Source: Schmidtea nova
Taxonomy: Eukaryota
Assembly (NCBI GenBank): GCA_044892505.1
Contig: CM097882.1
Location: forward strand, 183,520,001 to 183,584,000
DNA: 64,000 nucleotides
Reading direction: 5' to 3'
In this document: positions 15,223 through 41,154 of the stretch, piece after piece
How positions within the stretch are numbered: position 1 is the stretch's first letter
Layout: every line of letters begins with the position of its first letter
Position numbers and translations under genes: made by a program
The notes under the pieces: generated by a model
What the model was told of the DNA's origin: nothing
Database searches by the model: none
What the model saw: the letters and a program-made list of their open reading frames with translations, nothing else

Positions 15223-18200
15223 TTGAGACCAAGAGCAGTTAGTGCTACAATTCAAAAAGTTGATAAATCACAGAGAAGTAAATCGAAACAAAGAGCAACC
15301 AGTGTTACAAAGAAAACAAATCCTAAAGGAAGTAAATCAAGAAGAGTAATAGTAGAAAAGTCGAAAATCGAAAACAGCAAATTTCCTAAAACTAACGAAA
15401 GTGAAACAGAAGAAAGTTCAAGTGAAACCTACGATAATTATAATAATACGGAAGCATCAGATAACGAGTCAATAAACACAGAAGAAGTAGAAGCAGAAAT
15501 TGATAATAATTCAAACGAAACGAATAACGAGCATACTAGTGAAACAAGAGGAAACGAGAGTAAAACGACACAAGACAGCGGAATCGAAATGAACGAACAT
15601 AAAGAAGAAATTAAAGATAAATTTACTGGAGAACCATTCAATGGAGATGCCAGCAAGTTAGAAACATTTTTAAAAGAATTTGGTATATTTGTAGAAGTAT
15701 GTAAATGGAAACCAGAAACGATAAGAAGCAGAATTCAGTTATATTTAAAAGACAGTGCGTTAGATTTATATTTAGAAGCTAAAAATTCGGACGATCAACT
15801 CGATAGTTGGGAAAAGATAAAGAATTTTTTCCAGCAAACGTTTGGAATAAATAAAGTATTAAATGAAGCGTTTACAGAATTTTCAATGAGGAAACAAAAA
15901 GTTAATGAATCAAATGCAGTATATGCAAGTGAATTAAAGAAATTGGCTAAATTAGCATTTAATCAAAATAGTCCAATGAGTCCAGAATTAATGGCAGCAA
16001 TTTTTGTGGGGGGATTGAGAAGACCCGATATAAGAGCACAAGTTGGATGCCAAGGTTGTAAAACAATAGATGAAGCGTTGGAAATCGCTAACAGATTTGA
16101 ATTACATATGATCGGAAGTGAAGGAAGAATTTACCTAGCAATGGATACGACACAAAATGAACAAGCAATGAAGATAAACAATCATATCCCGAATTCACAA
16201 CAATTAAACCGACCACCACCTCAAAGGAGAAATGAGGGAAACAAAGTACAAAATTTCGGAAACCAAAATAATTATAATACGCAAGGACAGACAAAGCAAT
16301 ATCAAACCTGTGGAAAGTTAGGACATTGGCAACAAGAATGTTTCGTGAACTTAAATTGTAAAACGTGTGGAAGAAAAGGACATTCGGAAAATAGATGTTA
16401 CCAAAGATCATGTTATAACTGTGGACAACCAGGTCATATGGCAAAGAATTGCCAACAACAAAACAACCAGCAAAGGAATTGGTCGAACAACGGAAATCGA
16501 CAAAATTATGCGAATCAACAGAGTAACGGAAACCGTCAGAATTTTGAAAATCAACAGAGTAATTATAACCAGAATAAAAGTACCACCAAAGAAATACATT
16601 TATTACAAGAAGTTCAGAGATTGACAGAGTTAATAAATAATACACCGAGAGGAAATCAACAAACGAATCAACAACAAATGAATATGATGAGAAAAGTAGA
16701 AAGTGAAAATGAACGACTAAATCGAGAAAGTCAAGCACGACATGCTCAAGAATGGGCAAGAATACAAAGAGAAGACGAACAGAAACGACAGGAAAGAGAA
16801 CGACAACCATTGAGAATTAATATGATGAGAGCAATGAATCAAACAAGAGATAACAAAGAAGATATTGAACCAGAAACAAACCAGATAAACCCAAATCCGG
16901 AAGATGAAGAAAACCAAAAAGAAAAAGTACAAGAAAACGAAGACGTTATTAAACAAAAAAGGATGTTGGTAGTCATGCCAAACGATCATGTATTTCGATT
17001 TGAATATGATGAAAAAGAGGAAGTAGGAGTATTAATTAATAAAGTAAACAAGACGATTCCGGGAATGACGAAACTACCCCGAGAAGCATTTTTACAGACA
17101 GAAGACGAAGCAGCAATAAAATTGAAACCAACCGACATATGGAAAGATTTAGGAGTACCAATGAATAAAATGAAAGTCACAGTTATCCGGGAAATAGAAG
17201 AAAATAACGATGAAGAGAAATCAAAACCAGTAACAAAAGTCAAAAGTAGAGCATTGAAGATATTTGAAGAGAGAATCAAACAGAGAAAAGCAATGGAAAT
17301 AGAAAAACGAAGAGGCCAAATAGATGAATCAGAAAACAATGACAACAAGGAAGAAATACCACCAAAAAATGTACCAGATAAAGTAGAACAGACCGCACAT
17401 ATAAATATGTTAAGAAACTTAACTAGAGAATTTTCAGATGTAGAAAGTGACAGTGATGTCAGTAGTTTAGCAGGAGATATGCTAAAAGAACCAGAAAATG
17501 AAGACAACAAGATAGAAGTAGCGAAGACGCCAGAAAATATACAAATAAAAGAAGATGAAATTCAGAAACTATTAGAAAATGCGTTAGAAGTGATTTATAA
17601 CGAAGAATTTATTGATAAGAAGCGATATCGAAAATTTATAAGAGCAGTATTCCGAATGAACTACAAAGAACGGTTACAAAGTCGTGAAGTAGAGATATTA
17701 TCAGGATACGTCGTCAAACTATTAGATGAACCACTCCACGAATACATAATTTTAATAGAAATAAACGAATGTTCACCAAGAATTTGGATCAAATCTCCAT
17801 GCACGAACGAAATTTATCGATGGGTAGAAGACAGATTGGGAAGTTCATATAAAAACAAATTTATATATTCAGGAAATGAACTTGTAAGACGAGCAACGCA
17901 TTTGGTAGAAACAGGCATATGGCCAGGAGAGATAACAACATTATCAATATGCGACAATAAGAAAGAGGAAAATTTACAAGAAATCGCAAAGGAAGCAAAT
18001 ATGTGTTTTGAGATGAGAATTAAACCTCAGTTAGTAGAAAAGAAAGAAAGAATTCTCAGAGAAAATTTAAATTCACTAATAGAACAAATTATTCAACAAA
18101 TCGGCAAGAATAGAGAAGAATTAACGAAAACTGAATATGAGAAATTAAAACAATGCATCGAAAATATACGAGATACCAGCCATACGAGAGATTCGTCATA

Positions 18201-21200
18201 CAAGACTTGGAAAGTGATCGCGAAAATGGGAAAAGCGATGTTTAAACAAGGAGAAATTGGAGATTTAAAAATCAAAGTGAAATTACCAAACGAAGACACA
18301 AAAGAAATTGAGGTAATCGTGGATTGCACAATAGAAGAATTAGTTGATGTTATCAATGAGACTTTATTACAACGGGAAAAAGAAGACGAATTAGAAGACG
18401 ATATCATCATAAAATATAATGAACACGTACTAGAAGATCATGATGAGAGACGATTATATAAAATCGGTATATGGGATAATCACCAAACAATTCACGTTAT
18501 CAGAATGGATGATACGTCAAGAGAAACACCAAAAGACGAAAAAAGGAGACAAGAACGTCGAAGAGAAGAGATGCACAAACTAAGACAAATAATAGAAATT
18601 TATCGAAGATGGCAGATACAGCCAGAATGGGAAAATGTATTAGGAGAATTAAACTTCAACGAACGCCGAGTAACACCAGTAGAGAAACACTGGGATGTTA
18701 AAGAGAAATGCTGGAAAGCAAAAGGAGGTATATATGAAGAGGAATTTAGACCAGAAATGGAAGACAAATATGAACCAGAAATTAGAAGAGTTTGTATGGT
18801 GACAAGAAAAGTCATGCCAACAGATTTAGATGGACCAGAAACCGCAGCAATATGGTTAGAAACGCAAAGACGAAAAGCTGACGAACTTATCGAATTACTA
18901 AAAGGAAATGTACAAGGAAAAAGGCGAACGATCAAAGGATTAACCGAATTTTTCGTAGCAGGCGGCGAAGATATAATTAGTTTACGAAAAGTAGCAAAGG
19001 TAGTAGCAGAATATAAACGAGTTAACGAGTGGTGCCCAGAACAATTAGACAATGTAATCAAGAAATGGAGAAACCAAGAAAACTCCCAAGAACCACCGCA
19101 GAAAATACATTTAAGGATAATATATCCAGATCGAGAAAAAGAAGAGCTTTGGGTAAGATTAACTGAAAAGATTCGAGATGTTAAAAAGAGATTAAAATAT
19201 GAACCACCATTTCATCTACAACATCAAGGACGATCACTAGAAAACGATATGGAAATTTGGATAACGCCAGCACAGTTAGAACTGGCAAATACGTTAACAG
19301 TAGACGCAATAGCAGGTCAACCATTAAAACTTAAAGAGAAAAGAGTAAAAGAAAGCGGAGATACTCAGAATCTAAAGAAAACGATGCAAATAAGGCCAGG
19401 AACAAGCGCAAGACAGTATGAAACAACATCAATAAAAACCCAAGAAAGAACTCGACCACAACCATACGATACAGAAGAAATCTTAACAGACTGTGATGAC
19501 ATGCTAGAAGAATTAGCAAAATTGACAAAAGAAAAGGGCAATAATATTTTCGAAAGAGTACAAGAGTTACCCACAACGTCACAAGCAATCAATACCCAAG
19601 ATGAAGTTGAGCAAGAAATAGAGATAGAAGAAGTGAACGAAATCTCTGAAGAAGAAGCAAGAGGAGCAAATACAGAAAACGAACGATTAACACAAGAAAT
19701 GGAAAAATGGTGGGAACAGAGAAATAATGAACCAAGAGATGTTACAGAGGAAACTGGACGAGAAACCAGATTGATTGAAACAGGTACAACAATGGATAGA
19801 CGACCTAGAGGTAGATCAAAGACAGATCCAGCCAACGTAACCAACAAAACCAAAGAGGAAAGGAGACAAGAGAAATGGGGATTATGTTTAAAGAAACTCA
19901 ACAAAATAGCAGAAGCAAAAGACCAGGAAATAACGCAAAAATGTCAAGGTGAAGGATGGATATCAAAAACACTAATGGAAATATTGGCGATAATTGATCC
20001 AGAATTGAAAAAATGGTGGAGAATAAACGAAATAAGCGACAAGGCTAAAGCATTACATAGCGCAATCGCACCAATCTTACCCGAACTGATAAAAGAGAAG
20101 ACAAAATCAAGCCATTTAGATTGGCAATGGACCACAACGTTGATAAAGAGGTTAACTGAAGATGCAGAAAACGATAATAAATATGTGATAGCAATTGCGT
20201 ATACAATTTATAACTTATTAACATTGAGTAGAGGTAATCCAAAATCTATGGCAATAGAGAAACATATCAAAAATACGGCAAGCATCATAGCAAAAGAAAT
20301 AGAACCATACGTCATCAGTAAAGGAGGATGGGAAACATTTGCTAAAACGAATCAAAGAAACAGCCAAGCAAAGAATATGAAAAAGAAATTTGAAGAAATT
20401 TTAGGAGAATTAGAAAAAGAAAAGTCAGGAACAGGAAGTGGAAAATCTTCACTAAACCTGAATTCAATCATAATGATGATACTAATATGGCTAATTAGCG
20501 TTGAAGGAGCAACGGCGTTCGAAGTATTTGATTGCGACCAGATGGCATTAGGAGAAAAATATTCATTAAGAGGAACCGAACAATGCAAAGATGCAACTCC
20601 AACAGAATTAAAAGTATTACATAAAGAACAAATATACCACGTATATCAGGAAGCCGACTTAATAAAGACAACAGTTAATGAATGTAAAATATATAAAACA
20701 AGATTTGCTTTTTATTGTGGACATCGCCACTACTCTGCAATCGTAATGCCAGGAGCGGAAAGAGAAGCGATAATGTTACAAGGAGAAGATTGCAATAAAT
20801 TGTTCAAACATGGAGAAGTCGAAACAAGAGATCGAATAAAGATAAGAGGAAAAGCTGGAGTAATACTACAACAAACTTACTATGTAGCAGGAGCTATCAC
20901 AGGAGGAGAAGGTTACTGTCAAGGAGCAACATATCCAATATTTGGAGTACCAGCAACTAACATGGTAGTAATCGACACATATACGGTAGAACTAAAAGCG
21001 TACGAAGCATATTTTGACCCAGCAACAGGAGAAATGAAGACGTTATCAATGTGTAAAATTGAAGCCAGTACCTGTCAAACCGGTATGTCGACTTTAACAT
21101 ATAGAGCAAAAGCAAATGAATGCCAATTACAATTATTAAAGGAAGCAGAGTTCGACGAAGTACAAGGGAAAATCTTTCAGGAAGAAGATGATGATGAAGT

Positions 21201-22830
21201 AGCAAGAGGAAAACGTCTACAGGAGACAGTAAAAGGAGAGAAACCGTTCACCGCTAAAGTACAAGAAAAAGAGGTAAGGATGAGAGAGACGCCAACCGTA
21301 TTGGTTACATCAAACGCAAATATAGGAATGAGGTTTGTAAAAGGAAAACCGACATTAAAATGTGGTGTTTCTATGTTAGAAACAAATTATCCAGGTATTT
21401 ATGTATCAAGACAAGCAGCACCAAATGCAAAACCCAAGGTAGATACTACAGACATCAAATTACACGTATATTTAAATAACAAATTGGATTTTTTATTTCA
21501 TAAAGGTCAAGCATCAATGGAGAAAATATACTACGATCTCATTAACAACGATTGTATATTGAACAGAGAAATATTAAAGACGAAATTAGCAGTAGCAATC
21601 ACAAACCCGAATAGTGCTATGCCATTATTACCACTTAACGAAGGTCATTTTGGAAGAGTAGTTGGAGAAGTTATGTACGTATATATATGTCGAAAGACAC
21701 AGGCAAACGTAGCAACAACGACCAGAATACGACAAGGACAATGTACCAATGAATTGGAAATTGAATATAAAGGGAAAATAAGATATGTACAACCAGTGAC
21801 AAGGATCATTAATCCGGTCAGTTTTGAACCAAACCCTTTCAATTGCAGTAACGCATACGGACCACTATATCAGAAACCAGACGGAAATTGGGTCATGTTT
21901 CCGTCAAAATCAGAAGTACAACCACCTAGAGAATTCGAATTGATGCAACTTTCAAAAGGACGAAAATTTTCCAATATAGATGTAAATAACGGAGGAATTT
22001 ACAGTGCAAAAGATCTCGAAGCAGCACGACAAAATATATTATTTCCAGCTAGAAGAGAAGCGGTATTATCTAGCATTGTAACAATAACAGGAGGAACAAG
22101 TTATCAAGGAGGACCAAATTATGAATTATTATTGTCACCAGCACACTTTAGGAAAGCAACAGAAAATATGATGAAAGCAATGTGGGGACGATTTTTAATT
22201 TTCGGACAAATGATGGCCGGAATACTAGGTGTAATTTTAATCATACAAATAATACGAGTGATAATCACACAAATGCTAGCATGCTTTGATATTTATAAAA
22301 GAGAAAAGAAAGTTAATTGGAAATTAATAGCAGGATTTTTACCATTTTTAGCAAAAACGATGGTGTTACATGGTCACTCCAAAGATATTCACAGAATAAA
22401 ACGATTATTAAAAATACTGGCAAAAATGAAAGGAACGGATGAAGACGTGGGAAGAAAATTCAAAAAGATAATGACAGATGAACAAGCGAGACTACAATTA
22501 AAAAGAGAAAGAAAAGGATTATGGGAAAGAATAAGAGGAGATAAAACTCAAGACGATTCCAGTGATGACGATGATAATAATGACGACTGTGAAGGAGGAC
22601 AAAGGTATAGAAACCAAGCACCGCAATATAACGACAAGAATCCAGCAGAAGCATGGAAATGTCACGCACCTCCACCAACAATGTATCAAGAACCACTACA
22701 GGTATCAGGACACAGAGCAATGCAAATGATGCCAATGACAATTTTATATCCAATTATACCAGAAGATTTTAAACTAAGACGATGTAGAAGTATGGATCCG
22801 CAAGACGATTCACTCACAATTGCAGTCATG
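15223..22830 (+). CDS. Polyprotein, 5' part: Gag CA + zinc knuckles, 3-4 ubiquitin-like domains, Bcl-2-like domain, class III envelope glycoprotein; interrupted at 22830 by the Maverick
   Basis: CA-like FTGEPFNGD...FLKEF...SWEKIKNFF...RKQKVNESNAVY; knuckles 16300-16452 (CKTCGRKGHSENRC, CYNCGQPGHMAKNC; the first has Y for the first Cys); BH2-like YVISKGGWETF 20308-20340; signal + FEVFDC at 20518; TM 22192-22266. Start uncertain: track start is TTG, frame open from 15130, first ATG at 15589. Confidence 0.9.
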
Positions 22831-23484
22831 AGTAGGGGATAGTGAGGTTACGGAGCCACTTTTTTCACATAGCAACGGTTGCTAAGGTTATTACACATAC
22901 ATCATTATATAATCATCGAAGAACACGTTGCCAGGGTAATTACACACACATATATCAATTTATAGTCCTAGTGAAATATGTTGCTAAGGTAAACACACAC
23001 CAATGTATTTTCTTCGAGGAAACTGTTTCCAGGGTAAATACACACAATAGGGTGACTTCCCTGAGGACCTTGTTGTCTGGGTAAACATACATACATACAC
23101 ATCAATATATAATTCTTACTGATAGATGTAGTTAAGGTAACTACACACAGCAATATATAGTCCCCGAGGAAGATGATGTCAAGGAAAATACACACAACAA
23201 TATATAATCCCCGAGGAACCTGTTGCCAGGGTAAACACATATCAATATATAATCATCGAGGAACCTTTTGCTAGAGTAGACACACACATTAAAGTATTGT
23301 CTCCTTGGAACCTGTTGCTAAGGTAAATACGCCATTGTGTAACGGCAGTGACTACTGTTGGTAACATCAAAACATACAACACATTAATTATTACCCGTAA
23401 CACACTCGATAACATGTTTTTACTTAATCGAACGACGTTTTTGTTTTAATGTACTGACTAACATTTCGAGTAGTTTTTTATTAA

Positions 23485-23670
23485 TTGATAATTTTTGATA
23501 TATTATATAATTTTTGTAAAATGATCTTTAGAAAATCGAATATGAGAACTTTGAAAACGGATGAAATGAATGCGAGAATTGTGACAATAGTCGAAATTTT
23601 AAAGACGATTCTACAAGAGCAGATGAAATTTAATAATATTTGTAAACAGAAACAATTATTTTTACATTAA
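23485..23670 (+). CDS. Small Maverick ORF convergent with PolB (mirror copy 35270-35455 on -)
   Basis: Peptide TLKTDEMNARIVT...LQEQMKFNNICKQ recurs as TMKTDGINSRIVT in the copy at 1-60 and LQERMKFIIICKQ near 59480-59535; true start uncertain. Confidence 0.45.
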   Translation: MIIFDILYNFCKMIFRKSNMRTLKTDEMNARIVTIVEILKTILQEQMKFNNICKQKQLFLH

Positions 23671-23852
23671 ATAAAAATATTGACACAAAAAAAAAATGAA
23701 AACCCTGAACAATAAAACCGTTTGAAATCTTGTCAATACATAAAACTTTAAAAATAATTAAACATAATAAACTAAAGAAATATAAAACTAAATATAATGA
23801 AACCAATTATTTTTTAACAAAGTTTTATTCAATACAAATCTGAATTGGATAT

Positions 23853-26800
23853 TTAATTTGAATTGAGAACTGGATCTGAAACTGGAACACCAACCTGATC
23901 TTTTGATTGGTCTATAAACGAGCCACATCCCTTATAATATCCGTATGCAAGACTTTCATTTTTATCAACCCAAAGTCTTTTATCATCAAGATTAGTCAAG
24001 GCAATTTTCGAAAACTTATTAGTAAAAATTTGATGATTTTTACTCACAAATCGAGACTGCTCTACTGAAACTATAGTATTATTTCTATAACAATCAAGAT
24101 AAGACCGATGCTTCAGTTTAGTATCTTTCAAACAGAGGCCTTTAGCCTTTAAACATTCCTTATCACCTAAAAGACTATAACATTTAGGTCTAAGAAAAAC
24201 CCATTCCTTATATTTATGACCCTTATTTTCGTCTTTAAACTTTCCTATAACCGAATCAAGTTTTTTCGAATATAAAGAATGACTAGGGTCGTAATTCGAT
24301 GTATCCAAAAGACAATCTCTTATCATGGCCGGTAAAAGAATATCTAACCTACAATTTCTAATCTCCAAGAAGAAAGAATCGGTGTCACCAGCAACGATGT
24401 TAATTTCGCAGTTGAATTCATTACGATATTTTTGTAACTCTTCATACTGCAGCTGGTACATCCTAAGTTTAGATAAATCCAGTACAGTTTGGCCAATGTA
24501 GCTGGGTCTATCTAAACACACAGAGTCCTTATTAAGCAAGACAGAAATTAGGTCATCGTCAATTCTATAAGTTTTTCTAAAGGTAGGTTTTGAAGTATAT
24601 GTAATCAGTTTTGATGCTGAATTACATAGTCGTAAATTAAGTCGTTTTTTAAGATTTTCAACCGTTTTCCCATAAAGACTATTATTCTAGAGTTTGTAAT
24701 AGTTTTTATCTAAAGCTGTAGAAGATGCTGCCCTAAGTTCAGTGTTTGTATCTATATATTTTTTAAAAATGGGTTTCTGATTGTACTGAACAGCCCGATG
24801 AACTCGTGTTATTTTAACACCCAAAGAAACAAAAAGCTTGAGAAGCCTCCAATGAACAACATAGTTGAACTTTGGATAATGCGTCAGCATTAACTTCTCA
24901 ACTTTTGAACCCGGAGCACACATTTTCTCTGCCGCTACTGGAAAGTCATTTAATTTATCGTGAATTTCTGAAGGGATTTCAAGATCCACTTCAAAAGTCA
25001 CGCCATAAGTCAAAATAGCCAAATCAACATCCATTAATTTAATTAATTTATTTAATTTATTTTGATCTGTGATCCAACTAAATTTACCGTAAGGTAAGTT
25101 TTGACTTAAAGCCCACCCGTATAAATTATTTATGTCAATATATAAAAGTTCAGTCGTTTCGGAGGATACTACATGATGCTTGTTGACAAATGTCAAACCA
25201 CCACGGATCCCCCCTTCGAAAAAATTATAAATCTCCATATCCTGGAGCAATTCAATAGGTTCATCGAAGGTAATAAGCGCTGAAGCCCACGACATACCTG
25301 GAATACCCAAGAAATTCAAAGGCTCAAGTCTATTGTGAGCTATAGATTTAGCCCTAAACTGTTGAAAGAAATCAGCAAGAAGAAAAACATCCAGTTTAAG
25401 GTAGACCATCATATAGTCACAAAGAGTTTGACACTGGGTTTCCCTCCAAATAACTAATGCCTTGTCGTATTCAGCCTGCTTAACACCTTTCCAGATTGGT
25501 GGCAACTCATAAGTGTTGTTAAGAATTTCTAAAGATGTTGCAAAATCATAAGGAAAAATACCCTTACAGTCAACAATAGTCCCGGTGAATTCAGATCTAG
25601 TCAAAGGCAAACAAGTAAGAGTCTTAACAGCGTCATTTAAGCTAGAATTTACAAACTGACAAGAATCGATGAATTTAATGGTTAAATCACCGACCCTTGC
25701 TGATAAAGTTAAGAATTTTTCACTGGTTGTAGGAATACAAGAAATTTTCCAAGTTTTGAAATTAGCCAAACCATATTTAAGAATATGATGCAAGTCATAA
25801 CCCTTTAAATTATGAAAAATAACGGGTAAAAACTTGTATAACCGACGGGATTGATTACAAGAATTACAAGCAGCTCCCAAGAATTCACCAGTGTAATGAT
25901 CATGGTCTCTGACTGGTTGTACTAAAGTTTTCCTACAAAGATAACAAATAGTAGCAGAGTCAAAAGATTGTTGATTAGCCGATGTCATAAAAAGAGGTTT
26001 CTTGTAATTAGTTCTATAAAAGGGATAAACAATAGTTTCAGAAATATTACTAATTTCAGTAAGAAAATTAGTAACGCAATCAAGACCTAAGAAACTCTTG
26101 TAAATCTTTTCTCCAGTAAAGTAATTTACAAGTAAAAGACCGGCAGATATTGGGACATGTCTTTGAAAGTACTTATCATCAGCAGGTAAGATTGCCTCAA
26201 AATCGGCGTAAACAACAAAAGGTGGGGTAATTGTTTTGCCCCAATTACTAAATTGTAAATCTTTATTTCTAGGCAGAGTATAAAGAGTTGTGCCTAATTG
26301 ATTTTTAGCACACAACTGTTGATGACAATCGAATGCTTCCTGTTTTCGAAATCCATTCAAGCATCGATGACACCATATACTTTGTACGCGAGCTACAGAA
26401 AGAGATCTATTGTCGTAATTTAAAAGCTTATCAAGATCGGTGACTGCAATATAATGATATGCATCACAACTTTCCAACAAAATCAAGTTAATAGGAGTAC
26501 CGTCAATAACTTTCGACCTATGAATTATATCGACACAAGGATGTTTAAAAACTTCAGGGTCTTCCAAGGTATCAAGAAGAGCATCTTCATCATAAGATAA
26601 AACATTAATAGCAAGTCCAGGATTTTTAGCCTCAAATTTTGGAATATTACAGAGTCTCATGGGCATTTCTGAAGGGTCAAAGACAAGATCCGAAAGATTA
26701 TAATTACTTGTCCTATATCTGTGTCCATCTACATCATCATATTTCAAAATAGCTAAAATGCTATAAATAAAACACAAGTCGTCAGAATTTCTTACATTTA

Positions 26801-27572
26801 CTGTACAATATTTTAACTGTAAGGATTGAGGGGTTTGAATGTGACTACGTCCACTCAATCGAGATATTTGAGCAAATTTAGTTACAACGAAATGGATTTC
26901 ATTAACTTTGTTAATAACCCAATTACTCCCTTTATCGTTAATTAATGCTATTTTTTCATTTAAAAGAGCAATACCCTCGTCAAAAAAGGTATCACTCATA
27001 GGTCTCGCAGAATTTGAAATGATGAAGGATTGAAATTCTCCATCTTTTTCAAACTCTACGTCAATACAAAATTGTATTTTCACTGAACCCATCTCATTAA
27101 TAACATTATTTAGTTTATTAATTAAAATATCAGGTAAAATTAAAGTTTTCAAAACCAAGTGAGAAACATCCATTTTTACAACAGCGTGAGATTTTCTCAA
27201 ATCAAATTTAACGTTAGGAAGAAGGGACCCACCATATTGAACATCTATGGTGTTAATGTCATTATTAAAACTTGTGTCAGAGTCGGAAAGAATTTTCATA
27301 TCGGATATTACCTCGTCAACTATATTACTTAATTTTCTAACTTTTGTAGGTAGTGGATTATCGATAAGGATTTTTCTTTTATTATTAATAACATTGATAT
27401 CACTATTATCTATTGTTAAATTAAAAATGGATTTTTTCGAAGATCTAAATTTCCTTAAATGATCCTTATGGTCATCATAAAAGTTCAAAAAAGTAGAATT
27501 TTGAGTGGTCTTACATACGGGACATATAAAAAACGTGACTCCTTTATACGAATATCGGTAATATTTTACCAT
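23853..27572 (-). pseudogene. polB: Protein-primed B-family DNA polymerase, left arm (1239 codons, one internal stop)
   Basis: Exo I VYADFE, endonuclease-VII-like insert CYLC...RDHDHYTG...ACNSCN, Exo II FHNLKGYD, motif A IDINNLYG, motif B KL*NNSLYGKT (TAG at 24687-24689), motif C AGDTDS, RPKCYS. Confidence 0.95.
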
Positions 27573-30356
27573 TATTTCAATACATTTATTGTCATGAATT
27601 GATGATCGGCAAAAATTCGGAAAAAGTTTACCTTAAATATAAAAAATAATTAAAAATATGAAAAATAAATGACAAGTATTTTAATATTAAAATTAATGTC
27701 ATTATACAATAATTAATTAATAATTACAATAATAAAAATTTAATTAAATAATTTTAATATTATGAAAAATAATATTAATTAATTTCAATTATTATATTCT
27801 TAATTATAATTGTTTTAATAATAAGTTTTACTCAAAGATGTGAAATTTAAATTATTTACAAGTAATTTAAAAATATTAATTTAATATAATAATTTTCATA
27901 TAGAACATATTATTTGCTATGATAGAAAATAAATTATTTATTAATAATTAATTTACAAAAACTTTAATTACTAAAACATTATTAAAAAAAAAAAATAAAT
28001 AAATAAATAAATAAAACAATAAGTAATAATAATCAATATTCAAATTAATTTTATATTCAAATTAATTAATTAATTATTATAAAAAATTAGAATAATTATA
28101 ATTAAAACTAGAATTGTTTTAATAATTAGTTATAAAATAAAAATTCTAATTCAAAAATTGTAAATAATTTTCAAAAATTAGTAAACACTACAAAACTAAT
28201 TAAAAACTAATTATTAATTTAAATAATATAGTTAATTATTTTAAGTTCTCATTAGTATTTATTAACTTATCAATGATAAATATTACAAATCTCTTTGAAT
28301 AATAAATAAAGATTATCCGTTAAATTACAAAATTGATAAAGAAAACTAATTTTATTTAAGTTTATTTACAAAGGTAATTAATTATAAATTGCAATCATTA
28401 AATAAATCGATACTTACAGTTATTTTCTTTTATCTTTTCATCGTTAAGTTTATTTTTCATTAAACTATCCATTGTTTCAGATGCTTCAACATTGTCACCA
28501 ATAACGTTGTTCATATTGTTGTCGACATCGTTGTTGTAATCATTGATCATGGTAATATCCATATTGTAGATGTTGTTGTTCATTTTATCTAAAATAAGTT
28601 GATTATTTAAAAACTTTAAAACAAAAATAACTTACCAAATTTAAATTGCAGTAAAAAGTGATTCTTAAATGAAAAACTATTGTTTATATACTAAATTCAA
28701 AAATTTTTAACCAATCAAATTCGAGGAAACATACACACACGTTTGTAAATACCACAGTGTATTTTATTTTTACAATTAAATTTTGTAAAATTATTGAACA
28801 CAATTTATTGTTATAAATATATGTCATCATTTAATGATAAATATCAATTATTTTTAAAATACAATGTAATAAATTAAGATTAATTTTAAAATTAAATTAT
28901 ACTAATAAATTATAAAAATTATTACAAGTAATTAAAATTAAATAAAAAAAAAATATTTAATTATTCGATAAATTGTAAATTAATTAAAATAAAAATTAAT
29001 TAATTAAAAGTAAACTAATTATTCACAAAGTTATTAGTTTTTACATAATGTATTACTGTAAAGAATTAGAATATAAATTGTTACAGTGAAAACACAATTA
29101 AAGTATCAATCAGCAAATAAAATCAATTATTTACAACAAAACCCATGTGTAACACGATAATTTTTAAATTTCTAATCAAACAATTTAGTGGAAAATTTAT
29201 ACATATAATGAAAACTCTAAAAAATTATTTTAAATTGTTCAAAAATATCAATAAAACATGTGTGCAACATGAAAAATGACTAATTTTTCCCTAAATTTTT
29301 TTTTGTGGGGGGGGGGGGGTAAAAAAAATTTTTAGAGGGGGAGGGGGGGTCTGTTCCTGTTCTTGGGCGCTCCCCCTACTCTACTATCAACATTTTTAAT
29401 TTTTCTTTTTTCTTTATTTGTGCCTCAAATTGAAATTATTCGTTTTTCTCGCTGTAACAATGTATAGACAGAATTTTATTCTCTACAAGATGGCCAACTT
29501 GAAAATTCAAAATGTTGTGATTTGCGAGCTGCACACGCGTTTTGTTGTTATTAATTGGTTTTCTTTGATGTTATAATAAAGATAATGAGTTTTCACATTA
29601 ACAATGTATATTCAAAATTTAATTTCCTATAAAATGGTTTAAATAAAAATATAAAATTAGTCATTTTTCATGTTGCACACATGTTTTATTGATATTTTTG
29701 AACAATTTAAAATAATTTTTTAGAGTTTACATTATATGTATAAATTTTCCACTAAATTGTTTGATTAGAAATTTAAAAATTATCGTGTTACACATGGGTT
29801 TTGTTGTAAATAATTGATTTTATTTGCTGATTGATACTTTAATTGTGTTTTCACTGTAACAATTTATATTCTAATTCTTTACAGTAATACATTATGTAAA
29901 AACTAATAACTTTGTGAATAATTAGTTTACTTTTAATTAATTAATTTTTATTTTAATTAATTTACAATTTATCGAATAATTAAATATTTTTTTTTTATTT
30001 AATTTTAATTACTTGTAATAATTTTTATAATTTATTAGTATAATTTAATTTTAAAATTAATCTTAATTTATTACATTGTATTTTAAAAATAATTGATATT
30101 TATCATTAAATGATGACATATATTTATAACAATAAATTGTGTTCAATAATTTTACAAAATTTAATTGTAAAAATAAAATACACTGTGGTATTTACAAACG
30201 TGTGTGTATGTTTCCTCGAATTTGATTGGTTAAAAATTTTTGAATTTAGTATATAAACAATAGTTTTTCATTTAAGAATCACTTTTTACTGCAATTTAAA
30301 TTTGGTAAGTTATTTTTGTTTTAAAGTTTTTAAATAATCAACTTATTTTAGATAAA

Positions 30357-30522
30357 ATGAACAACAACATCTACAATATGGATATTACCATGATCAATGA
30401 TTACAACAACGATGTCGACAACAATATGAACAACGTTATTGGTGACAATGTTGAAGCATCTGAAACAATGGATAGTTTAATGAAAAATAAACTTAACGAT
30501 GAAAAGATAAAAGAAAATAACT
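30357..30522 (+). CDS. Probable upstream coding exon of PolB (mirror 28418-28583 on -)
   Basis: Flanked by a 47-nt GT-AG intron (30305-30351) and donor T|GTAAGT at 30523; acceptor TTAAG| at 31308 restores the PolB frame. Confidence 0.5.
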
Positions 30523-31367
30523 GTAAGTATCGATTTATTTAATGATTGCAATTTATAATTAATTACCTTTGTAAATAAACTTAAATAAAATTAGTTTTCT
30601 TTATCAATTTTGTAATTTAACGGATAATCTTTATTTATTATTCAAAGAGATTTGTAATATTTATCATTGATAAGTTAATAAATACTAATGAGAACTTAAA
30701 ATAATTAACTATATTATTTAAATTAATAATTAGTTTTTAATTAGTTTTGTAGTGTTTACTAATTTTTGAAAATTATTTACAATTTTTGAATTAGAATTTT
30801 TATTTTATAACTAATTATTAAAACAATTCTAGTTTTAATTATAATTATTCTAATTTTTTATAATAATTAATTAATTAATTTGAATATAAAATTAATTTGA
30901 ATATTGATTATTATTACTTATTGTTTTATTTATTTATTTATTTATTTTTTTTTTTTAATAATGTTTTAGTAATTAAAGTTTTTGTAAATTAATTATTAAT
31001 AAATAATTTATTTTCTATCATAGCAAATAATATGTTCTATATGAAAATTATTATATTAAATTAATATTTTTAAATTACTTGTAAATAATTTAAATTTCAC
31101 ATCTTTGAGTAAAACTTATTATTAAAACAATTATAATTAAGAATATAATAATTGAAATTAATTAATATTATTTTTCATAATATTAAAATTATTTAATTAA
31201 ATTTTTATTATTGTAATTATTAATTAATTATTGTATAATGACATTAATTTTAATATTAAAATACTTGTCATTTATTTTTCATATTTTTAATTATTTTTTA
31301 TATTTAAGGTAAACTTTTTCCGAATTTTTGCCGATCATCAATTCATGACAATAAATGTATTGAAATA

Positions 31368-34300
31368 ATGGTAAAATATTACCGATATTCGTATAAAGGA
31401 GTCACGTTTTTTATATGTCCCGTATGTAAGACCACTCAAAATTCTACTTTTTTGAACTTTTATGATGACCATAAGGATCATTTAAGGAAATTTAGATCTT
31501 CGAAAAAATCCATTTTTAATTTAACAATAGATAATAGTGATATCAATGTTATTAATAATAAAAGAAAAATCCTTATCGATAATCCACTACCTACAAAAGT
31601 TAGAAAATTAAGTAATATAGTTGACGAGGTAATATCCGATATGAAAATTCTTTCCGACTCTGACACAAGTTTTAATAATGACATTAACACCATAGATGTT
31701 CAATATGGTGGGTCCCTTCTTCCTAACGTTAAATTTGATTTGAGAAAATCTCACGCTGTTGTAAAAATGGATGTTTCTCACTTGGTTTTGAAAACTTTAA
31801 TTTTACCTGATATTTTAATTAATAAACTAAATAATGTTATTAATGAGATGGGTTCAGTGAAAATACAATTTTGTATTGACGTAGAGTTTGAAAAAGATGG
31901 AGAATTTCAATCCTTCATCATTTCAAATTCTGCGAGACCTATGAGTGATACCTTTTTTGACGAGGGTATTGCTCTTTTAAATGAAAAAATAGCATTAATT
32001 AACGATAAAGGGAGTAATTGGGTTATTAACAAAGTTAATGAAATCCATTTCGTTGTAACTAAATTTGCTCAAATATCTCGATTGAGTGGACGTAGTCACA
32101 TTCAAACCCCTCAATCCTTACAGTTAAAATATTGTACAGTAAATGTAAGAAATTCTGACGACTTGTGTTTTATTTATAGCATTTTAGCTATTTTGAAATA
32201 TGATGATGTAGATGGACACAGATATAGGACAAGTAATTATAATCTTTCGGATCTTGTCTTTGACCCTTCAGAAATGCCCATGAGACTCTGTAATATTCCA
32301 AAATTTGAGGCTAAAAATCCCGGACTTGCTATTAATGTTTTATCTTATGATGAAGATGCTCTTCTTGATACCTTGGAAGACCCTGAAGTTTTTAAACATC
32401 CTTGTGTCGATATAATTCATAGGTCGAAAGTTATTGACGGTACTCCTATTAACTTGATTTTGTTGGAAAGTTGTGATGCATATCATTATATTGCAGTCAC
32501 CGATCTTGATAAGCTTTTAAATTACGACAATAGATCTCTTTCTGTAGCTCGCGTACAAAGTATATGGTGTCATCGATGCTTGAATGGATTTCGAAAACAG
32601 GAAGCATTCGATTGTCATCAACAGTTGTGTGCTAAAAATCAATTAGGCACAACTCTTTATACTCTGCCTAGAAATAAAGATTTACAATTTAGTAATTGGG
32701 GCAAAACAATTACCCCACCTTTTGTTGTTTACGCCGATTTTGAGGCAATCTTACCTGCTGATGATAAGTACTTTCAAAGACATGTCCCAATATCTGCCGG
32801 TCTTTTACTTGTAAATTACTTTACTGGAGAAAAGATTTACAAGAGTTTCTTAGGTCTTGATTGCGTTACTAATTTTCTTACTGAAATTAGTAATATTTCT
32901 GAAACTATTGTTTATCCCTTTTATAGAACTAATTACAAGAAACCTCTTTTTATGACATCGGCTAATCAACAATCTTTTGACTCTGCTACTATTTGTTATC
33001 TTTGTAGGAAAACTTTAGTACAACCAGTCAGAGACCATGATCATTACACTGGTGAATTCTTGGGAGCTGCTTGTAATTCTTGTAATCAATCCCGTCGGTT
33101 ATACAAGTTTTTACCCGTTATTTTTCATAATTTAAAGGGTTATGACTTGCATCATATTCTTAAATATGGTTTGGCTAATTTCAAAACTTGGAAAATTTCT
33201 TGTATTCCTACAACCAGTGAAAAATTCTTAACTTTATCAGCAAGGGTCGGTGATTTAACCATTAAATTCATCGATTCTTGTCAGTTTGTAAATTCTAGCT
33301 TAAATGACGCTGTTAAGACTCTTACTTGTTTGCCTTTGACTAGATCTGAATTCACCGGGACTATTGTTGACTGTAAGGGTATTTTTCCTTATGATTTTGC
33401 AACATCTTTAGAAATTCTTAACAACACTTATGAGTTGCCACCAATCTGGAAAGGTGTTAAGCAGGCTGAATACGACAAGGCATTAGTTATTTGGAGGGAA
33501 ACCCAGTGTCAAACTCTTTGTGACTATATGATGGTCTACCTTAAACTGGATGTTTTTCTTCTTGCTGATTTTTTTCAACAGTTTAGGGCTAAATCTATAG
33601 CTCACAATAGACTTGAGCCTTTGAATTTCTTGGGTATTCCAGGTATGTCGTGGGCTTCAGCGCTTATTACCTTCGATGAACCTATTGAATTGCTCCAGGA
33701 TATGGAGATTTATAATTTTTTCGAAGGGGGGATCCGTGGTGGTTTGACATTTGTCAACAAGCATCATGTAGTATCCTCCGAAACGACTGAACTTTTATAT
33801 ATTGACATAAATAATTTATACAGGTGGGCTTTAAGTCAAAACTTACCTTACGGTAAATTTAGTTGGATCACAGATCAAAATAAATTAAATTAATTAATTA
33901 AATTAATGGATGTTGATTTGGCTATTTTGACTTATGGCGTGACTTTTGAAGTGGATCTTGAAATCCCTTCAGAAATTCACGATAAATTAAATGACTTTCC
34001 AGTAGCGGCAGAGAAAATGTGTGCTCCGGGTTCAAAAGTTGAGAAGTTAATGCTGACGCATTATCCAAAGTTCAACTATGTTGTTCATTGGAGGCTTCTC
34101 AAGCTTTTTGTTTCTTTGGGTGTTAAAATAACACGAGTTCATCGGGCTGTTCAGTACAATCAGAAACCCATTTTTAAAAAATATATAGATACAAACACTG
34201 AACTTAGGGCAGCATCTTCTACAGCTTTAGATAAAAACTATTACAAACTCTAGAATAATAGTCTTTATGGGAAAACGGTTGAAAATCTTAAAAAACGACT

Positions 34301-35087
34301 TAATTTACGACTATGTAATTCAGCATCAAAACTGATTACATATACTTCAAAACCTACCTTTAGAAAAACTTATAGAATTGACGATGACCTAATTTCTGTC
34401 TTGCTTAATAAGGACTCTGTGTGTTTAGATAGACCCAGCTACATTGGCCAAACTGTACTGGATTTATCTAAACTTAGGATGTACCAGCTGCAGTATGAAG
34501 AGTTACAAAAATATCGTAATGAATTCAACTGCGAAATTAACATCGTTGCTGGTGACACCGATTCTTTCTTCTTGGAGATTAGAAATTGTAGGTTAGATAT
34601 TCTTTTACCGGCCATGATAAGAGATTGTCTTTTGGATACATCGAATTACGACCCTAGTCATTCTTTATATTCGAAAAAACTTGATTCGGTTATAGGAAAG
34701 TTTAAAGACGAAAATAAGGGTCATAAATATAAGGAATGGGTTTTTCTTAGACCTAAATGTTATAGTCTTTTAGGTGATAAGGAATGTTTAAAGGCTAAAG
34801 GCCTCTGTTTGAAAGATACTAAACTGAAGCATCGGTCTTATCTTGATTGTTATAGAAATAATACTATAGTTTCAGTAGAGCAGTCTCGATTTGTGAGTAA
34901 AAATCATCAAATTTTTACTAATAAGTTTTCGAAAATTGCCTTGACTAATCTTGATGATAAAAGACTTTGGGTTGATAAAAATGAAAGTCTTGCATACGGA
35001 TATTATAAGGGATGTGGCTCGTTTATAGACCAATCAAAAGATCAGGTTGGTGTTCCAGTTTCAGATCCAGCTCTCAATTCAAATTAA
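31368..35087 (+). pseudogene. polB: Protein-primed PolB, right arm (two internal stops)
   Basis: Mirror of the left copy; shared TAG at 34251-34253, private TAA at 33891-33893, G>R at 33822, V>A near the C-terminus. Confidence 0.95.
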
Positions 35088-35718
35088 ATATCCAATTCAG
35101 ATTTGTATTGAATAAAACTTTGTTAAAAAATAATTGGTTTCATTATATTTAGTTTTATATTTCTTTAGTTTATTATGTTTAATTATTTTTAAAGTTTTAT
35201 GTATTGACAAGATTTCAAACGGTTTTATTGTTCAGGGTTTTCATTTTTTTTTTGTGTCAATATTTTTATTTAATGTAAAAATAATTGTTTCTGTTTACAA
35301 ATATTATTAAATTTCATCTGCTCTTGTAGAATCGTCTTTAAAATTTCGACTATTGTCACAATTCTCGCATTCATTTCATCCGTTTTCAAAGTTCTCATAT
35401 TCGATTTTCTAAAGATCATTTTACAAAAATTATATAATATATCAAAAATTATCAATTAATAAAAAACTACTCGAAATGTTAGTCAGTACATTAAAACAAA
35501 AACGTCGTTCGATTAAGTAAAAACATGTTATCGAGTGTGTTACGGGTAATAATTAATGTGTTGTATGTTTTGATGTTACCAACAGTAGTCACTGCCGTTA
35601 CACAATGGCGTATTTACCTTAGCAACAGGTTCCAAGGAGACAATACTTTAATGTGTGTGTCTACTCTAGCAAAAGGTTCCTCGATGATTATATATTGATA
35701 TGTGTTTACCCTGGCAAC

Positions 35719-36290
35719 AGGTTCCTCGGGGATTATATATTGTTGTGTGTATTTTCCTTGACATCATCTTCCTCGGGGACTATATATTGCTGTGTGTAGT
35801 TACCTTAACTACATCTATCAGTAAGAATTATATATTGATGTGTATGTATGTATGTTTACCCAGACAACAAGGTCCTCAGGGAAGTCACCCTATTGTGTGT
35901 ATTTACCCTGGAAACAGTTTCCTCGAAGAAAATACATTGGTGTGTGTTTACCTTAGCAACATATTTCACTAGGACTATAAATTGATATATGTGTGTGTAA
36001 TTACCCTGGCAACAGGTTCCTCGGGGATTATATATTGTTGTGTGTATTTTCGTTGACATCATCTTCCTCAAGGACTATATATTGCTGTGTGTAGTTACCT
36101 TAACTACATCTATCAGTAAGAATTATATATTGATGTGTATGTATGTATGTTTACCCAGGCAACAAGGTCCTCAGGGAAGTCACCCTGGAAACAGTTTCCT
36201 CGAAGAAAATACATTGGTGTGTGTTTACCTTAGCAACATATTTCACTAGGACTATAAATTGATATATGTGTCTGTAATTACCCTGGCAAC
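35719..36290. repeat. 295-bp tandem duplication (second copy with an 18-bp deletion) in the right TIR only
   Basis: AGGTTCCTCGGGG at 35719 and 36014; the net +277 bp explains the arm-length difference (59217-58940). Confidence 0.85.
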
Positions 36291-36392
36291 GTGTTCTTCG
36301 ATGATTATATAATGATGTATGTGTAATAACCTTAGCAACCGTTGCTATGTGAAAAAAGTGGCTCCGTAACCTCACTATCCCCTACTGTCATG

Positions 36393-39300
36393 ACATCAAA
36401 TACAGGACCAGTATTAACTACAACCATAGAAATAAATGGAAAAGAAATAGAAGCGATGATAGATACAGGAGCAAACATTTCGGCAATAGATATTAAATGG
36501 ATACCGCAAGAACAGAGACAAGAAGTTGAAAGAACAAATGTTCATGTAATCGCATGTAGTAAAGAGATAGTTGAAGTTGCAGGAAGATGGTGGGTGAAAA
36601 TACGACACCAAAATATAGAAATCGAAACGTATGTAGCAGTAATACCGGCTTTAAGTGTACCATGTATAATCGGAACAGATTTAATGCCAACACTATTCAA
36701 AGAAATAATCATCGATCTTGGAACAATGAGATTAAAGGACAGAACAAGGAAAATAGGTGCCATGGAAGCAAAAATAATGATACCGGAAGAAAGAATCATG
36801 ACGAGATCACAAACCATCAGAATAAATATGCTCAGAGCGGAAGAAATTAACACAACTAGTCAAGTAGACAGTGAGAAAATCGATGTTGACAAAGAAATCG
36901 TACGAAAAGCCAAAGAAATAAACGAAAGATGGGAAATCAGACAAGGAAAAGACGTTTTATGGGATATACGACAAATAATCAGTGATTACGCACGAGGATG
37001 CCCAACCAAACCAATCATAATAGAATTACTAAAGAAAATACCAGAGATACTCGTATTACAAGATACAGGAGGTGCAACTGCACTACACAATGCCATAAGT
37101 TGGGGTAAAACGGAAAAGGTAAAAGAATTCTTGAAAATAGCAAAAGAAACGAATCAAAATCTAGACATTGTAAATCGAGAATTAGAAACGCCAATGATGA
37201 CAGCAACACTAAGCTTAGCAGATAAAAAAATAGTAGATATGCTGATCAACGCAGAATTCAACTGGACAGCTCGAAATAGAAGAGGAAACACAGTTTTAAA
37301 CCATGTAATAATGAGTGAAAATCAAATGATACTAAAACATATAACAACCAACCTCACATGGGAAATCGATGAATTAATCAAAGGAGAAATTATGAAGGAA
37401 GCGATTCGGAAAGGAAACACTAAAACCATATGGAAACTAATACAATGGAAATGGCCGAATAATAAAATATGGGTATTAGATATAAACAAAGAATTTAGCG
37501 AAGGACAGAACGCGCTATTGAGATACTTATTAGAGTTTACGTGCGATCAGAGAACAATGTTAGCACTAATAAATAGAGGAAAAATAAATATTAGTAAAAA
37601 CGAAGAGGAATATAAACTAGAAGTCGAAAAGAAAGCGTTATTCAGGAAAATTTGGGTATGGTGTCAAAAACAACTACGCAAAGACATAAGCTACAAAAAT
37701 CTAAATGATTTCCAAGAAAAGTATAAAACGATAATAAAGGAATACAAGAAGCTAGTGGAGATATTAAACGATCCAGAAAAATTTAATCAAGCGATAAATC
37801 AGAAAGAAGAAGAAAGTAAAAGGATACTCACACCATTGTTCAACGCGAAAATAGATTACCAAGAAAGATTAGATGCAATACAGAAAAAAGCAAAGGAACT
37901 ATTACCAGAATTCAAAGATACAAAATACGCCTTGGAAATACTTGGCGCAATAGTAGAAAAAGTACACGCGTACGCGAAAGGAATATATAATGGAAACGAT
38001 ATAATAATTATAAAAAGAGAAATGCCAGTTGCATTTTTACTAACTAAAGAAAGAATAATGCCGATTCATAGAGCATTGAGAGCAGGAAAAGACAGTAAAG
38101 TAATCGAAATCGCAAGATTAATGCATCAATGTGGATGTGATATGAATATGATAGACGAAAAAGGAGACACCCTCATGGTATACGCAGCAAGAGCAAAAAC
38201 AAAAATCAAAGTATTAGAAGAGTTATATAAAGCAGGTGCAGGATTAATCGGGAAAACGGTCAAAGACAACTCAATATTAGACGTGACATTATTAGGTCCA
38301 AACTGGGAAATGTTGAATTTCATTAAAACGATAACAAACCAAGAAGAGATAGATTATTTAACAGAAACCGTAAAAGGACCAAGCGTATTGACAATGATGC
38401 AAAACATCAAATTGACAGAAGAAGTATTAAACTGGAAAATACCAAATACAAATAAACCAGCATTTAAAGTTAACAAGTTTATGGAGAATAATCGAAATTG
38501 GTGTATCCAAAGCGCACTAATAACTTATATATGGCCCGAAATTGTAGAAATTTTCATGAGAAGAGAAGATCTGAGATTTACAAACAAGCCCAAAGAAACG
38601 GAAAAGGTAGTTAAATGGAAAGAATTGATGAAAACACACCTTCAAAGATGGATAAAAGCCAAGAAAGAAATTATACAGTATCAGTTAGACAACAAAAAGA
38701 TACCCGAAGATATAGAATTCCAAGAATTCGAAGCAAGTAACTTAACATCACTATATTATGCAAAACTAATAGAAACAAGTAATGTCGAGGACGACATTTT
38801 TAACGAGCCAGGGAGAGATAATAATACTGACAATGATGATGACGATGAAGAAAACAAGGACGACGAGAGAAATAAAGACGATGATGATGAAAACAATCAC
38901 GGAAATCCAGATAACCACGAACAAACCAATAAAGAAGACGAGAATCAAGAGAGAAATACAAAGAACCACGAATCCAAAGAACAAAGAGAAGACAACCCTA
39001 AAAACAATCATGAAAAGAAAGGAACAAGTTACAGAAGGAATCCATTATTCAGACCAGAAGTATTAATGTTCGCAATAATCATAACACTTATGGGACAATG
39101 TGAAGCAACGAAACAAGAGATATCAGTAGAAATGGAAGTACCAATACAAAAAGCATCAACACAAATAATGAATTCAAAGGACATTGAACAAGTATGTTGG
39201 GTAAAAGAGAATGAAATTCTCGGAGATAACAACCTATTACGATGTATAATTCCAAACCCCGATCGAAAAACCATAATAATAGACGAAATGGATATGGAAA

Positions 39301-41033
39301 CATGGTACAGAATATGTACAATCAGAAAACCCAAAGACGAAAAATCACACAAAACAGTTACATGCCAAGTATACAAGACACCCAAAGTCCGATACGAGTT
39401 CGCCAATGGAATAGACCTTCCAGGACCAATTTATTTTAAAATAACAAGAGCACCAGCATCTAGAAAAGTCTTACAACAACCAAGAACCAAGACAACAATA
39501 CCAAGTACAAGGAATACAACGGATAAACCAGAAGCAAACGGAGGAAATACAACGGTTAAACCAGAACCAAAAAGACGAATGAAACAAACCACAAGAGTAA
39601 TCTATAACTCCAAGTTGTTATGTATAGCACTTATTATGACAATACTGAAGCGATTAGAAGAAGGAATAGAGATGGATACAATGACATTAATAGACATGGA
39701 AGAGACACAAATGACAAATCAAAAATGTTGGTTTAGAAACGATGAAAAATTAGAATTAAAGGAATCAAGAGAAATTCAGAAACTGGAAGCGAGTAAAACG
39801 AACAAAGTAATCAAGATAATAAAGATAAAAACAGACAGAATTCATAAACTATGTTTATTGGAAAAAGAGAGAAACAAGAAAGGAATAACCAATTGTAAAA
39901 CATTTCAAGCAGGAAAAATAATAACGTTTGCAAGAAAAATGGGAAAAGGAAACAAACAGAATTTCCAGAAATTAACCATAACGTTAGAAATAACGGGAAT
40001 AGAACAAAACGTAAACGGAGTATGCTGGAGAAAATACGAGAAAGAAACGAATAAACCTAAATCATCACAATGTCAAACAATCAGAGGAACAACTGCAGTA
40101 CAAATAAAAAGCTTAGAAAGAAATCAAACTTATGAAATATGCCTAATAAAGGAAAATGATCAAATAACGAAAGAAGATTAAGAATGCAGAATATACAAAA
40201 CACCGAACAGAGTAAAAACCAGTAAAGCAATACGAAAGAATAAAAGACAACAAAAACCGAAGCATACCACTACCGAAAGTCAAACAGAACCAGAGAGGAA
40301 AACCTCAGCAACACTTATACTTTGGAAATTAGATGACAAAACAGTGGAAATATGTTGGACAATGATCAAGAAATACGAAGAAAGACAACCACAACAATGC
40401 GAAAAGATGAATAAAGAAGAGGAGATCAGAATTCAGAACCTACAATTGGACAAACAATACGAAATATGCGCAATAGAAAAGGCAGATAAATTTGGAAACC
40501 AGCAAGAAAAATGTGGAAACTATTATACACCGACAAATACAACGATCAAAGGAAGAATCAAGAAACTGACCTTCGGAGAATTGAAGCAAACAACGAAACA
40601 AATGGAAAACGAGGAAACAATAATAGATTCTTATGCCCAATGGAAACCAGAGAAAGTAATTCAGGAAGTCAAAAGGAAACAACAAGAACGACAACAATTG
40701 GAACTCAAATTGAAAGGACAATATGGACCAATAATCAATCAGAGCAAATTCACCCAAATCAATGTTAACAAGCAAGGAAGAGAACTAATTGGAGTAGGAA
40801 TACTGGCAGTATGCGTACCAATAATAATAATAATATTATCAATAATATGGTTATGGGACATAATAAAAAAGAAACCAACCAGACAATGGCCAGATATAAA
40901 GATCATGAATTGTAAAATCAAAATACCTGAAGAAGTGAAGAAAGAATTCCAAAGAAGAACCAAAGGCAAAGAATTTTGGAAGCAAATAGAAGACGAGGAG
41001 CGACACGATGAAAAAGCAGTGATGATAGTATAG
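36393..41033 (+). CDS. Polyprotein, 3' part: retropepsin, two ankyrin clusters, acidic linker, internal signal peptide, four FN3-like repeats, TM; one in-frame TAA at 40179-40181
   Basis: Joins in frame to 22830 (...IAVM|TSNTG...); MIDTGANISAI...CIIGTDL; GATALHNAISWG, GNTVLNHVI, GDTLMVYAA; frame stays open from 40182 into track ORF 40344-41033. Confidence 0.9.
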
Positions 41034-41154
41034 AGGGTGGGATATGACTGTAAATAATATTGTAAATTACAAAGCATTACCGTATATAGTATGGGTATTA
41101 GTATTATAAAGTAGATAAAAGAGAAAAGAGAAAAATAATAATGTATTTTAGAAA

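Follow-up and report, generated by a model that had tools for sequence, protein, structure and literature searches.

What kind of transposon consists almost entirely of two mirror-image arms, each bearing a gene for a protein-primed DNA polymerase (polB)? Such an element, a derivative of the Maverick DNA transposons 13,556 bp long, occupies positions 22831..36386 (no strand assigned) of a 64,000-nucleotide stretch of Schmidtea nova DNA (assembly GCA_044892505.1, contig CM097882.1, positions 183,520,001 to 183,584,000), referred to here as the window. An earlier interpretation from the letters alone, the sequence-only reading, saw a single snap-back genome integrated once. We find that the element is one damaged copy of a large palindromic Maverick lineage with many subfamilies. 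The account we favour, and regard as probable, is that a copy with a broken polB inserted recently, and that its family likely replicates with its own polymerase, has its arms re-copied outside the chromosome and uses the integrase of complete Mavericks.

Structure of the element

Comparison of the window with itself gave a single long inverted match, 22895-29287 against 36045-29653. The left arm (22831..29287, 6,457 bp, minus strand) and its inverted partner on the right (29653..36386, 6,734 bp, plus strand) differ by 6 substitutions, found base by base among 6,361 sites across 22927-29287, and by one 277-bp terminal indel. The indel lies in a subterminal minisatellite with a unit of ~46 bp, present in a short form at the left end (22880..23330, plus strand) and with a 277-bp tandem expansion at the longer right end (35610..36340, minus strand). 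Similar one-sided expansions arose independently in relatives. Long and short terminal forms were considered as inherited alleles and rejected, as the added unit is similar to one that the same element already carries.

End comparison placed the termini at AGTAGGGG...CCCCTACT, flanked on both sides by GTCATG (22825..22830 and 36387..36392, plus strand). The element has terminal inverted repeats (TIRs) of Maverick type with the AG/AGT end motif and a 6-bp target-site duplication (TSD). Between the arms are 365 unpaired bp, comprising 5 unassigned bases, a 93-bp Maverick terminus (29293..29385, plus strand) with the sequence of the complete family A terminus, and the innermost 267 bp of the right arm (29386..29652, plus strand). 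The last are unpaired because their left partner was lost in a copy-specific deletion that shortened the inner end of the left arm.

When the core proteins of a complete relative were compared with the element by tblastn, 0 of 10 matched, versus 10 of 10 in a control element; neither the integrase nor the packaging ATPase, cysteine protease, and major and minor capsid genes gave a match. The sequence-only reading had proposed a giant hairpin with correct ends and a perfect 6-bp TSD, devoid of these genes and able to fold back over nearly all of its length. All of this is borne out, the last by self-complementarity that is nearly whole-length.

The arms have diverged by 0.094% and the LTRs (long terminal repeats) of the host element, into which the Maverick derivative inserted, by 0.071%, values that are equal within error. 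This match suggests that the insertion is recent and that the two arms probably did not differ when it was made.

The two polymerase genes

Each arm carries an outward-directed frame for a protein-primed family-B polymerase (PF03175, E 9e-26). The left copy (23853..27632, minus strand) is broken by an in-frame stop at 24687-24689, which we take to lie between polymerase motifs A and C, and the right copy (31308..35087, plus strand) by stops at 33891-33893 and 34251-34253. The stop at 24687-24689/34251-34253 is common to both arms and occurs in 2 of 52 hairpin-lineage arms, both from this element; the one at 33891-33893 is confined to the right arm. Two divergent polB copies had been described earlier, with no mention of the in-frame stops on both arms. 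A short leader exon, ATG to GT donor, is predicted at 30357..30522 (plus strand, phase 1, fitting an AG acceptor at 31308), with a TATA-like box near 30250 and a mirror copy at 28418-28583 (minus strand). The spacing of the two polB copies is 8,340 here, compared with ~9,030 in several relatives.

Positions 33880-33910 (mirror 25034-25062) form an AT-rich repeat within polB at which stop-forming changes recur in many subfamilies, and which is likely a mutation hotspot.

A large family of palindromes

The genome was searched with the centre of the element, and 40 of 2,355 candidates were scored. Among these 40, matches start only at the inner terminus and none runs across 29287/29653 in the forward direction. 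At 17 of 19 other centre loci the sequence forms an inverted pair, the two halves being separated by an AT-rich spacer of 344-886 bp. Genomic polB matches likewise form inverted pairs, mostly 8-11 kb apart. Exact patterns matched 3,784 times for outer-type ends, 1,681 times for the A-centre junction and 332 times for the B-centre junction, A and B being the two families of complete Mavericks described below; reversed-pattern controls gave 0. At two junctions per element, the 2,013 exact centre junctions give an estimate of ~1,000 hairpin-lineage elements, which takes in polB-less derivatives and misses mutated junctions.

To sample by position, 20 of ~23 plus/minus pairs were taken among the first 100 listed ends (C1, 0.5-32 Mb), leaving aside the many listed ends without a partner. 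Two polB arms were present in 11 pairs (4 of them partly deleted), one polB arm with one AAT-rich arm in 2, and AAT-rich sequence without polB in 3; the remainder were 2 gene-less palindromes of another kind and 2 complete Mavericks. Together with 11 pairs chosen by polB similarity, 31 of 31 end-pairs had perfect 6-bp TSDs, all different. Therefore, the palindrome transposes as a unit.

At several loci (L068/L069, L087, L092/L093, L101, L063, L164-L167) AAT-rich repeats replace the hairpin sequence beyond the window equivalent of 31237-31330, and in some derivatives an arm of this kind is paired with a polB arm. Three one-armed, TSD-bounded elements with two outer-type ends (L177-L179) were considered as half elements and look like deletions.

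The centre is a miniature Maverick

The usual hairpin centre is a miniature Maverick, that is, a pair of termini of complete family A (~0.5 kb) or family B (0.82-0.89 kb). The A-type loop joins a short piece of one Maverick end to ~450 bp of the opposite end. A complete Maverick nested, with its own TSD, in a relative (L035-L037) has as its terminus the sequence found at the borders of the usual loop. The inner inverted repeat of the captured mini-Maverick measures ~41 bp for A and is longer for B. B-centred hairpins have the same arms as A-centred ones to within ~15 bp, and in both types the sequences flanking the inner termini mirror each other and are not direct repeats or a TSD. Simple insertion of the centre with its own TSD was rejected on the mirror-image flanks, the A and B flanks not being prefixes of each other.

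The window copy has lost the innermost 267 bp of its left arm and most of its mini-Maverick in a deletion of ~0.7 kb; in a set of 35 single-junction loci, deletions that span the centre are frequent. The sequence-only reading had taken 29287/29653 for the copy-back junction and the unpaired stretch for the copy-back loop. Neither identification held. The junction, considered also as a mark of the family, is private to this copy, with relatives sharing a different, conserved centre, and the supposed loop is the composite of three pieces given above.

Purifying selection on polB

The dN/dS ratio (replacement to silent substitution rates) between the window copy and nine other hairpin arms was 0.09-0.17. 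In the young clade, inherited changes present on both arms were 9 silent to 2 replacement, compared with 13:46 for single-arm changes (Fisher p=2.7e-4) and 5:18 for private changes on both arms (p=0.002), against a neutral expectation of ~1:3.9. Over the 3.2 kb compared, 16 of 52 hairpin-lineage arms were without a stop or frameshift. These ratios indicate that polB of the family is under purifying selection, even though that of the window copy is broken on both arms. By the same measure, the polymerase stayed sound in lineages with several descendants, and last-step changes, such as the shared stop of the window copy, passed unfiltered. The earlier word "defective" thus suits this copy and not its family.

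Agreement between the arms

When 56 natural polB segments were placed in a tree, the two arms of most elements grouped together. The element's own other arm was strictly closest in 16 of 22 cases and the remaining 6 fell among near-identical neighbours; own arms differed by 0-19 positions in 3.2 kb, compared with as many as 112 differences from the closest of the other elements sampled. Among 11 young copies, variants common to at least two elements occupied both arms in 11 cases and a single arm in 1, and private variants both arms in 22 cases and a single arm in 62, in a count that left out gapped columns. As inherited variants sit on both arms, the arms appear to have been re-copied.

The 900 bp outside the inner terminus were compared at 27 of 32 loci, the 5 set aside being rearranged or mosaic, and the sides were named by loop asymmetry. 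Shared variants there fell on both arms at 367 element-sites and on one arm at 46, neither side being favoured. Inside the 41-bp inner repeat, three variants remain on the short side, at 6, 7 and 25 of the 32 loci. This pattern would fit fold-back priming at the inner repeat, and also conversion that fails near the edge of heterology.

Complete Mavericks and gene-less palindromes

Complete Mavericks in the same genome carry an ATPase, PX, integrase, protease, a frame resembling a double jelly-roll (DJR) capsid protein, and one polB. The polB of the nested complete Maverick is ~85% identical to that of the window element, and one B core-gene segment is present in at least 40 copies that are 99% or more alike. 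The capsid-like frames gave no Pfam match; they fell in Atlas DJR-like clusters at 0.98, with PF21738 on 30% of members and a recognition value of 2235, under the 2300 mark, and their identity as DJR capsids is at present a lead.

The hairpin elements have Maverick ends, occur as repeated TSD-bounded insertions, lack an integrase and have complete relatives with related ends, as expected of a non-autonomous derivative. The complete A and B Mavericks are the likely helpers, and from the ends and TSDs only we infer that they mobilise the hairpins.

Complete A elements measure 14,943-15,498 bp (4 of 10 sampled A-end pairs were complete) and complete B elements 15,265-15,517 bp. Fifteen hairpins without large deletions or insertions, the window copy included, span 13,556-14,467 bp, and five gene-less palindromes 12,949-13,214 bp. 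These lengths approach that of the helper and hint at packaging; because shorter and longer copies were left out of the list, the size argument is a hint and not a test.

The gene-less palindromes form a second giant family of ~13 kb with A- or B-type ends and a perfect palindromic centre (for example G000:C1:24400361-24413574, L094/L095; L144-L149; L160-L163). No long frames were present in the one copy checked. Their centre motif occurs 1,140 times with one mismatch allowed, some elements having two.

Both complete families carry a gene like that of the TATA-binding protein (PF00352, E 8e-17) beside the ATPase (L036:617-1129, L090:1878-2210), and in both the integrase is split over two frames, possibly by an intron. 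Mavericks nested in each other were seen at L035-L037 and L056. Complete B elements (L090/L091, L102/L103) have ~1.3-kb TIRs that hold the last 500 bp of polB, an arrangement that we read as a small step towards gene-bearing hairpin arms.

Origin of the palindrome and alternative explanations

Fold-back palindromes have parallels in Tetrahymena ribosomal DNA, Streptomyces linear plasmids and the panhandle repair of adenovirus. In the account we favour, the hairpin would have arisen by fold-back priming at the short inverted repeat (~41 bp in A, longer in B) of a captured mini-Maverick, at least twice and within ~15 bp of the same arm position. The arms would be re-copied during extrachromosomal strand-displacement replication, either through fold-back at the inner repeat or through conversion of one arm by the other while the strand is folded. 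Copies with a working polB would enjoy an advantage in cis, and integration would occur in trans through the integrase of complete Mavericks. The window copy later lost 267 bp of its left arm with most of the mini-Maverick.

Several observations weigh against this account, which is drawn from assembled genome sequence. The outer ends of the hairpin subfamily share only ~16 nucleotides with complete B, and none of 9 candidates of atypical length was a complete element with the subfamily's ends, so that the helper is one we infer. The centre of the gene-less palindromes is perfect without a Maverick terminus, and a mini-Maverick is therefore not required for every giant palindrome. Among the 35 single-junction loci there was no clear half element, bounded by a TSD, with an intact inner terminus as its end (one was ambiguous), and a half-length intermediate is thus not supported. 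As for the arms, those of 4 of 22 elements differ at the recurrent stop-forming site in the AT-rich repeat (33891), which the omission of gapped columns dropped from the variant count. The side-specific variants lie within ~22 bp of the loop, where ordinary gene conversion would fail too, and so do not separate fold-back from conversion. Elements with two unlike arms exist (L006, L014, L062, L072/73, L100/101) and by their mosaic make-up show that arms of different copies also recombine. The private both-arm changes look neutral (5:18) and would also fit conversion after insertion. B-centred hairpins share a polB clade with complete B, for which reason recombination with helpers may import part of the selection signal.

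Of the other explanations, the one that fares best, though we judge it unlikely, is an ordinary non-autonomous Maverick with extremely long TIRs, whose arms are evened out by gene conversion in the chromosome after insertion and whose polB selection is inherited from helpers by recombination. The neutral private changes, the mosaic arms and the clade shared with complete B all speak for it, as do the gene-bearing TIRs of ~2 kb known from butterfly polintons (10.1101/2025.02.07.637071). However, the arms of the window copy diverged at the rate of the host LTRs, so that strong conversion in place is not visible there. The variants shared within the young subfamily are already enriched in silent changes, and a complete relative of that subfamily was not found.

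We consider it very unlikely that one defective snap-back genome arose at 29287/29653 and was integrated in trans a single time, as the sequence-only reading had proposed. The palindromic build, the dependence on a helper, the broken polB of this copy and the likeness to snap-back defective genomes (PMC13506859) all agree with such an origin, and helper-dependent integration is a part of the proposal that our results support. Against it, the junction is peculiar to this copy and breaks into a centre that is conserved, palindromic relatives number in the hundreds across many subfamilies, and polB is under purifying selection; the element is not the lone product of a conventional Maverick. The single-event case is refuted for the junction and holds only as a loose picture of how the family began long ago.

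Still less credible is the construction of each palindrome in place by ectopic recombination or alternative transposition between adjacent Mavericks, as proposed for C. elegans eri-6/7. Mavericks do nest in each other in this genome, and Polinton-mediated inversions have been described (10.1101/2024.01.15.575659), but one perfect TSD bounds every whole element examined and the central junction falls at the same base in 1,681 places. An assembly artefact from fold-back long reads can be practically dismissed, as the sequence-only reading had held. In its favour, short-read contigs from four runs of one study, possibly of the source material, hold the family, and no listed piece bridges the junctions of the window copy. 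Against it stand different flanks with TSDs, host frames in register, differences specific to one arm, an asymmetric spacer conserved over hundreds of copies, and a subfamily structure and selection signal that are not expected of a read artefact.

The host element and its surroundings

The host is a giant Burro-like LTR element (9672..47781, plus strand) whose long frame is interrupted by the Maverick derivative. Its 2.8-kb LTRs (9672-12474 and 44980-47781) are 99.9% identical. By frame arithmetic only, the reading frames on either side of the insertion are in register, in line with the in-frame rejoining of the host frame noted in the sequence-only reading. The domains recognised were a zinc knuckle (gag), a mononegavirus-like fusion protein, an aspartic protease, ankyrin, TRAF/MATH and RING. 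No Pfam match to a reverse transcriptase, RNase H or integrase was obtained in the 9 host frames among 14 scanned, and no YxDD-type motif was present in the three plus frames. Since the LTRs are near-identical and yet no reverse transcriptase or integrase was detectable, the host may itself be non-autonomous and have been mobilised recently, with its gag, env-like and protease parts retained. Its domain set fits the available description of Burro elements, whose giant frame has a gag zinc knuckle, a mononegavirus-like env between gag and protease, ankyrin, MATH/TRAF and RING (PMC6431247), and points to a planarian-like organism.

Elsewhere in the window, positions 1-896, together with L040, are the right end of another family member with ~92.6% identical polB and a truncated left arm. 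Decayed Maverick ATPase, integrase and A-type subterminal repeats lie outside the element at 4453-5106 and 2135-2330, and old degraded pieces of the hairpin arm and centre region, ~73% identical, at 55555-59583. A hAT transposase frame (PF05699) occupies 50252-52177, and an IS4/piggyBac-like fragment (PF13843) 54435-54830.

Relation to known systems and significance

The family resembles autonomous Mavericks/Polintons (PMC8097293, PMC4028283) in its AGT-type ends, 6-bp TSD, protein-primed polB and size in the 13-15 kb range. It differs in having TIRs of ~6.7-7 kb that make up almost the whole element, two polB copies, and no integrase, ATPase, protease or capsid genes. In intact vertebrate Mavericks, by comparison, the TIRs measure 46-1,447 bp, and these elements were collected on the condition that integrase occurs with polB (PMC8097293); because an integrase is required beside polB, standard surveys miss palindromic families. 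The hairpin family is a non-autonomous Maverick and stands outside the autonomous family. Butterfly polintons likewise have core genes doubled by lying in ~2-kb TIRs (10.1101/2025.02.07.637071), but those elements are full-length with a unique interior, whereas here the interior is cut to a mini-element of 0.5-0.85 kb. Snap-back and copy-back defective viral genomes (PMC13506859) share the near-complete self-complementarity and helper dependence; unlike them, the hairpins are heritable, integrated and divided into many subfamilies, and carry a coding gene on which purifying selection acts. For fold-back palindromes, intra-strand annealing at inverted repeats has been described (PMC5314454); these palindromes resemble the hairpins in being giant and centred on a short inverted repeat and spacer, but in the hairpins the two termini of another Maverick form that repeat, and what results is an element that transposes. 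C. elegans loci with polB and a TIR and without integrase are not presented as palindromes in the text available (10.1101/2024.01.15.575659), and inverted repeats adjoin integrated invertron plasmids (PMC1864894). No report of a palindromic Maverick family was found in the literature searched, which was mostly without subscription papers, Repbase Reports and bioRxiv supplements; polB-bearing arms and mini-Maverick centres appear to be new.

By estimate, the ~1,000 hairpin copies and ~1,100 second-family centres would put on the order of 1-2% of the genome into giant inverted repeats. Repeats of this kind are as a rule unstable and could give rise to long double-stranded RNA. The two arms of each element are an internal control, by which the time of arm re-copying, the action of polB in cis and a length limit for packaging could be tested from sequence.

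Replication and virion formation of animal Mavericks have so far been mostly inferred, with virions argued from gene content (PMC4028283). We tentatively raise the possibility that both palindrome families are Maverick satellites, in which doubling of a ~7-kb half by fold-back gives two origins and a helper-like length selected for packaging in helper capsids. One lineage would keep a polymerase and swap mini-Maverick centres as priming or cutting sites, and another would be gene-less. If this is true, the presence of two unrelated families of palindromes that reach 85-95% of the helper's length would be evidence at the genome level for the packaging of animal Mavericks, and comparable families elsewhere, in other genomes, would mean that such palindromes are a general and overlooked side of Maverick biology.

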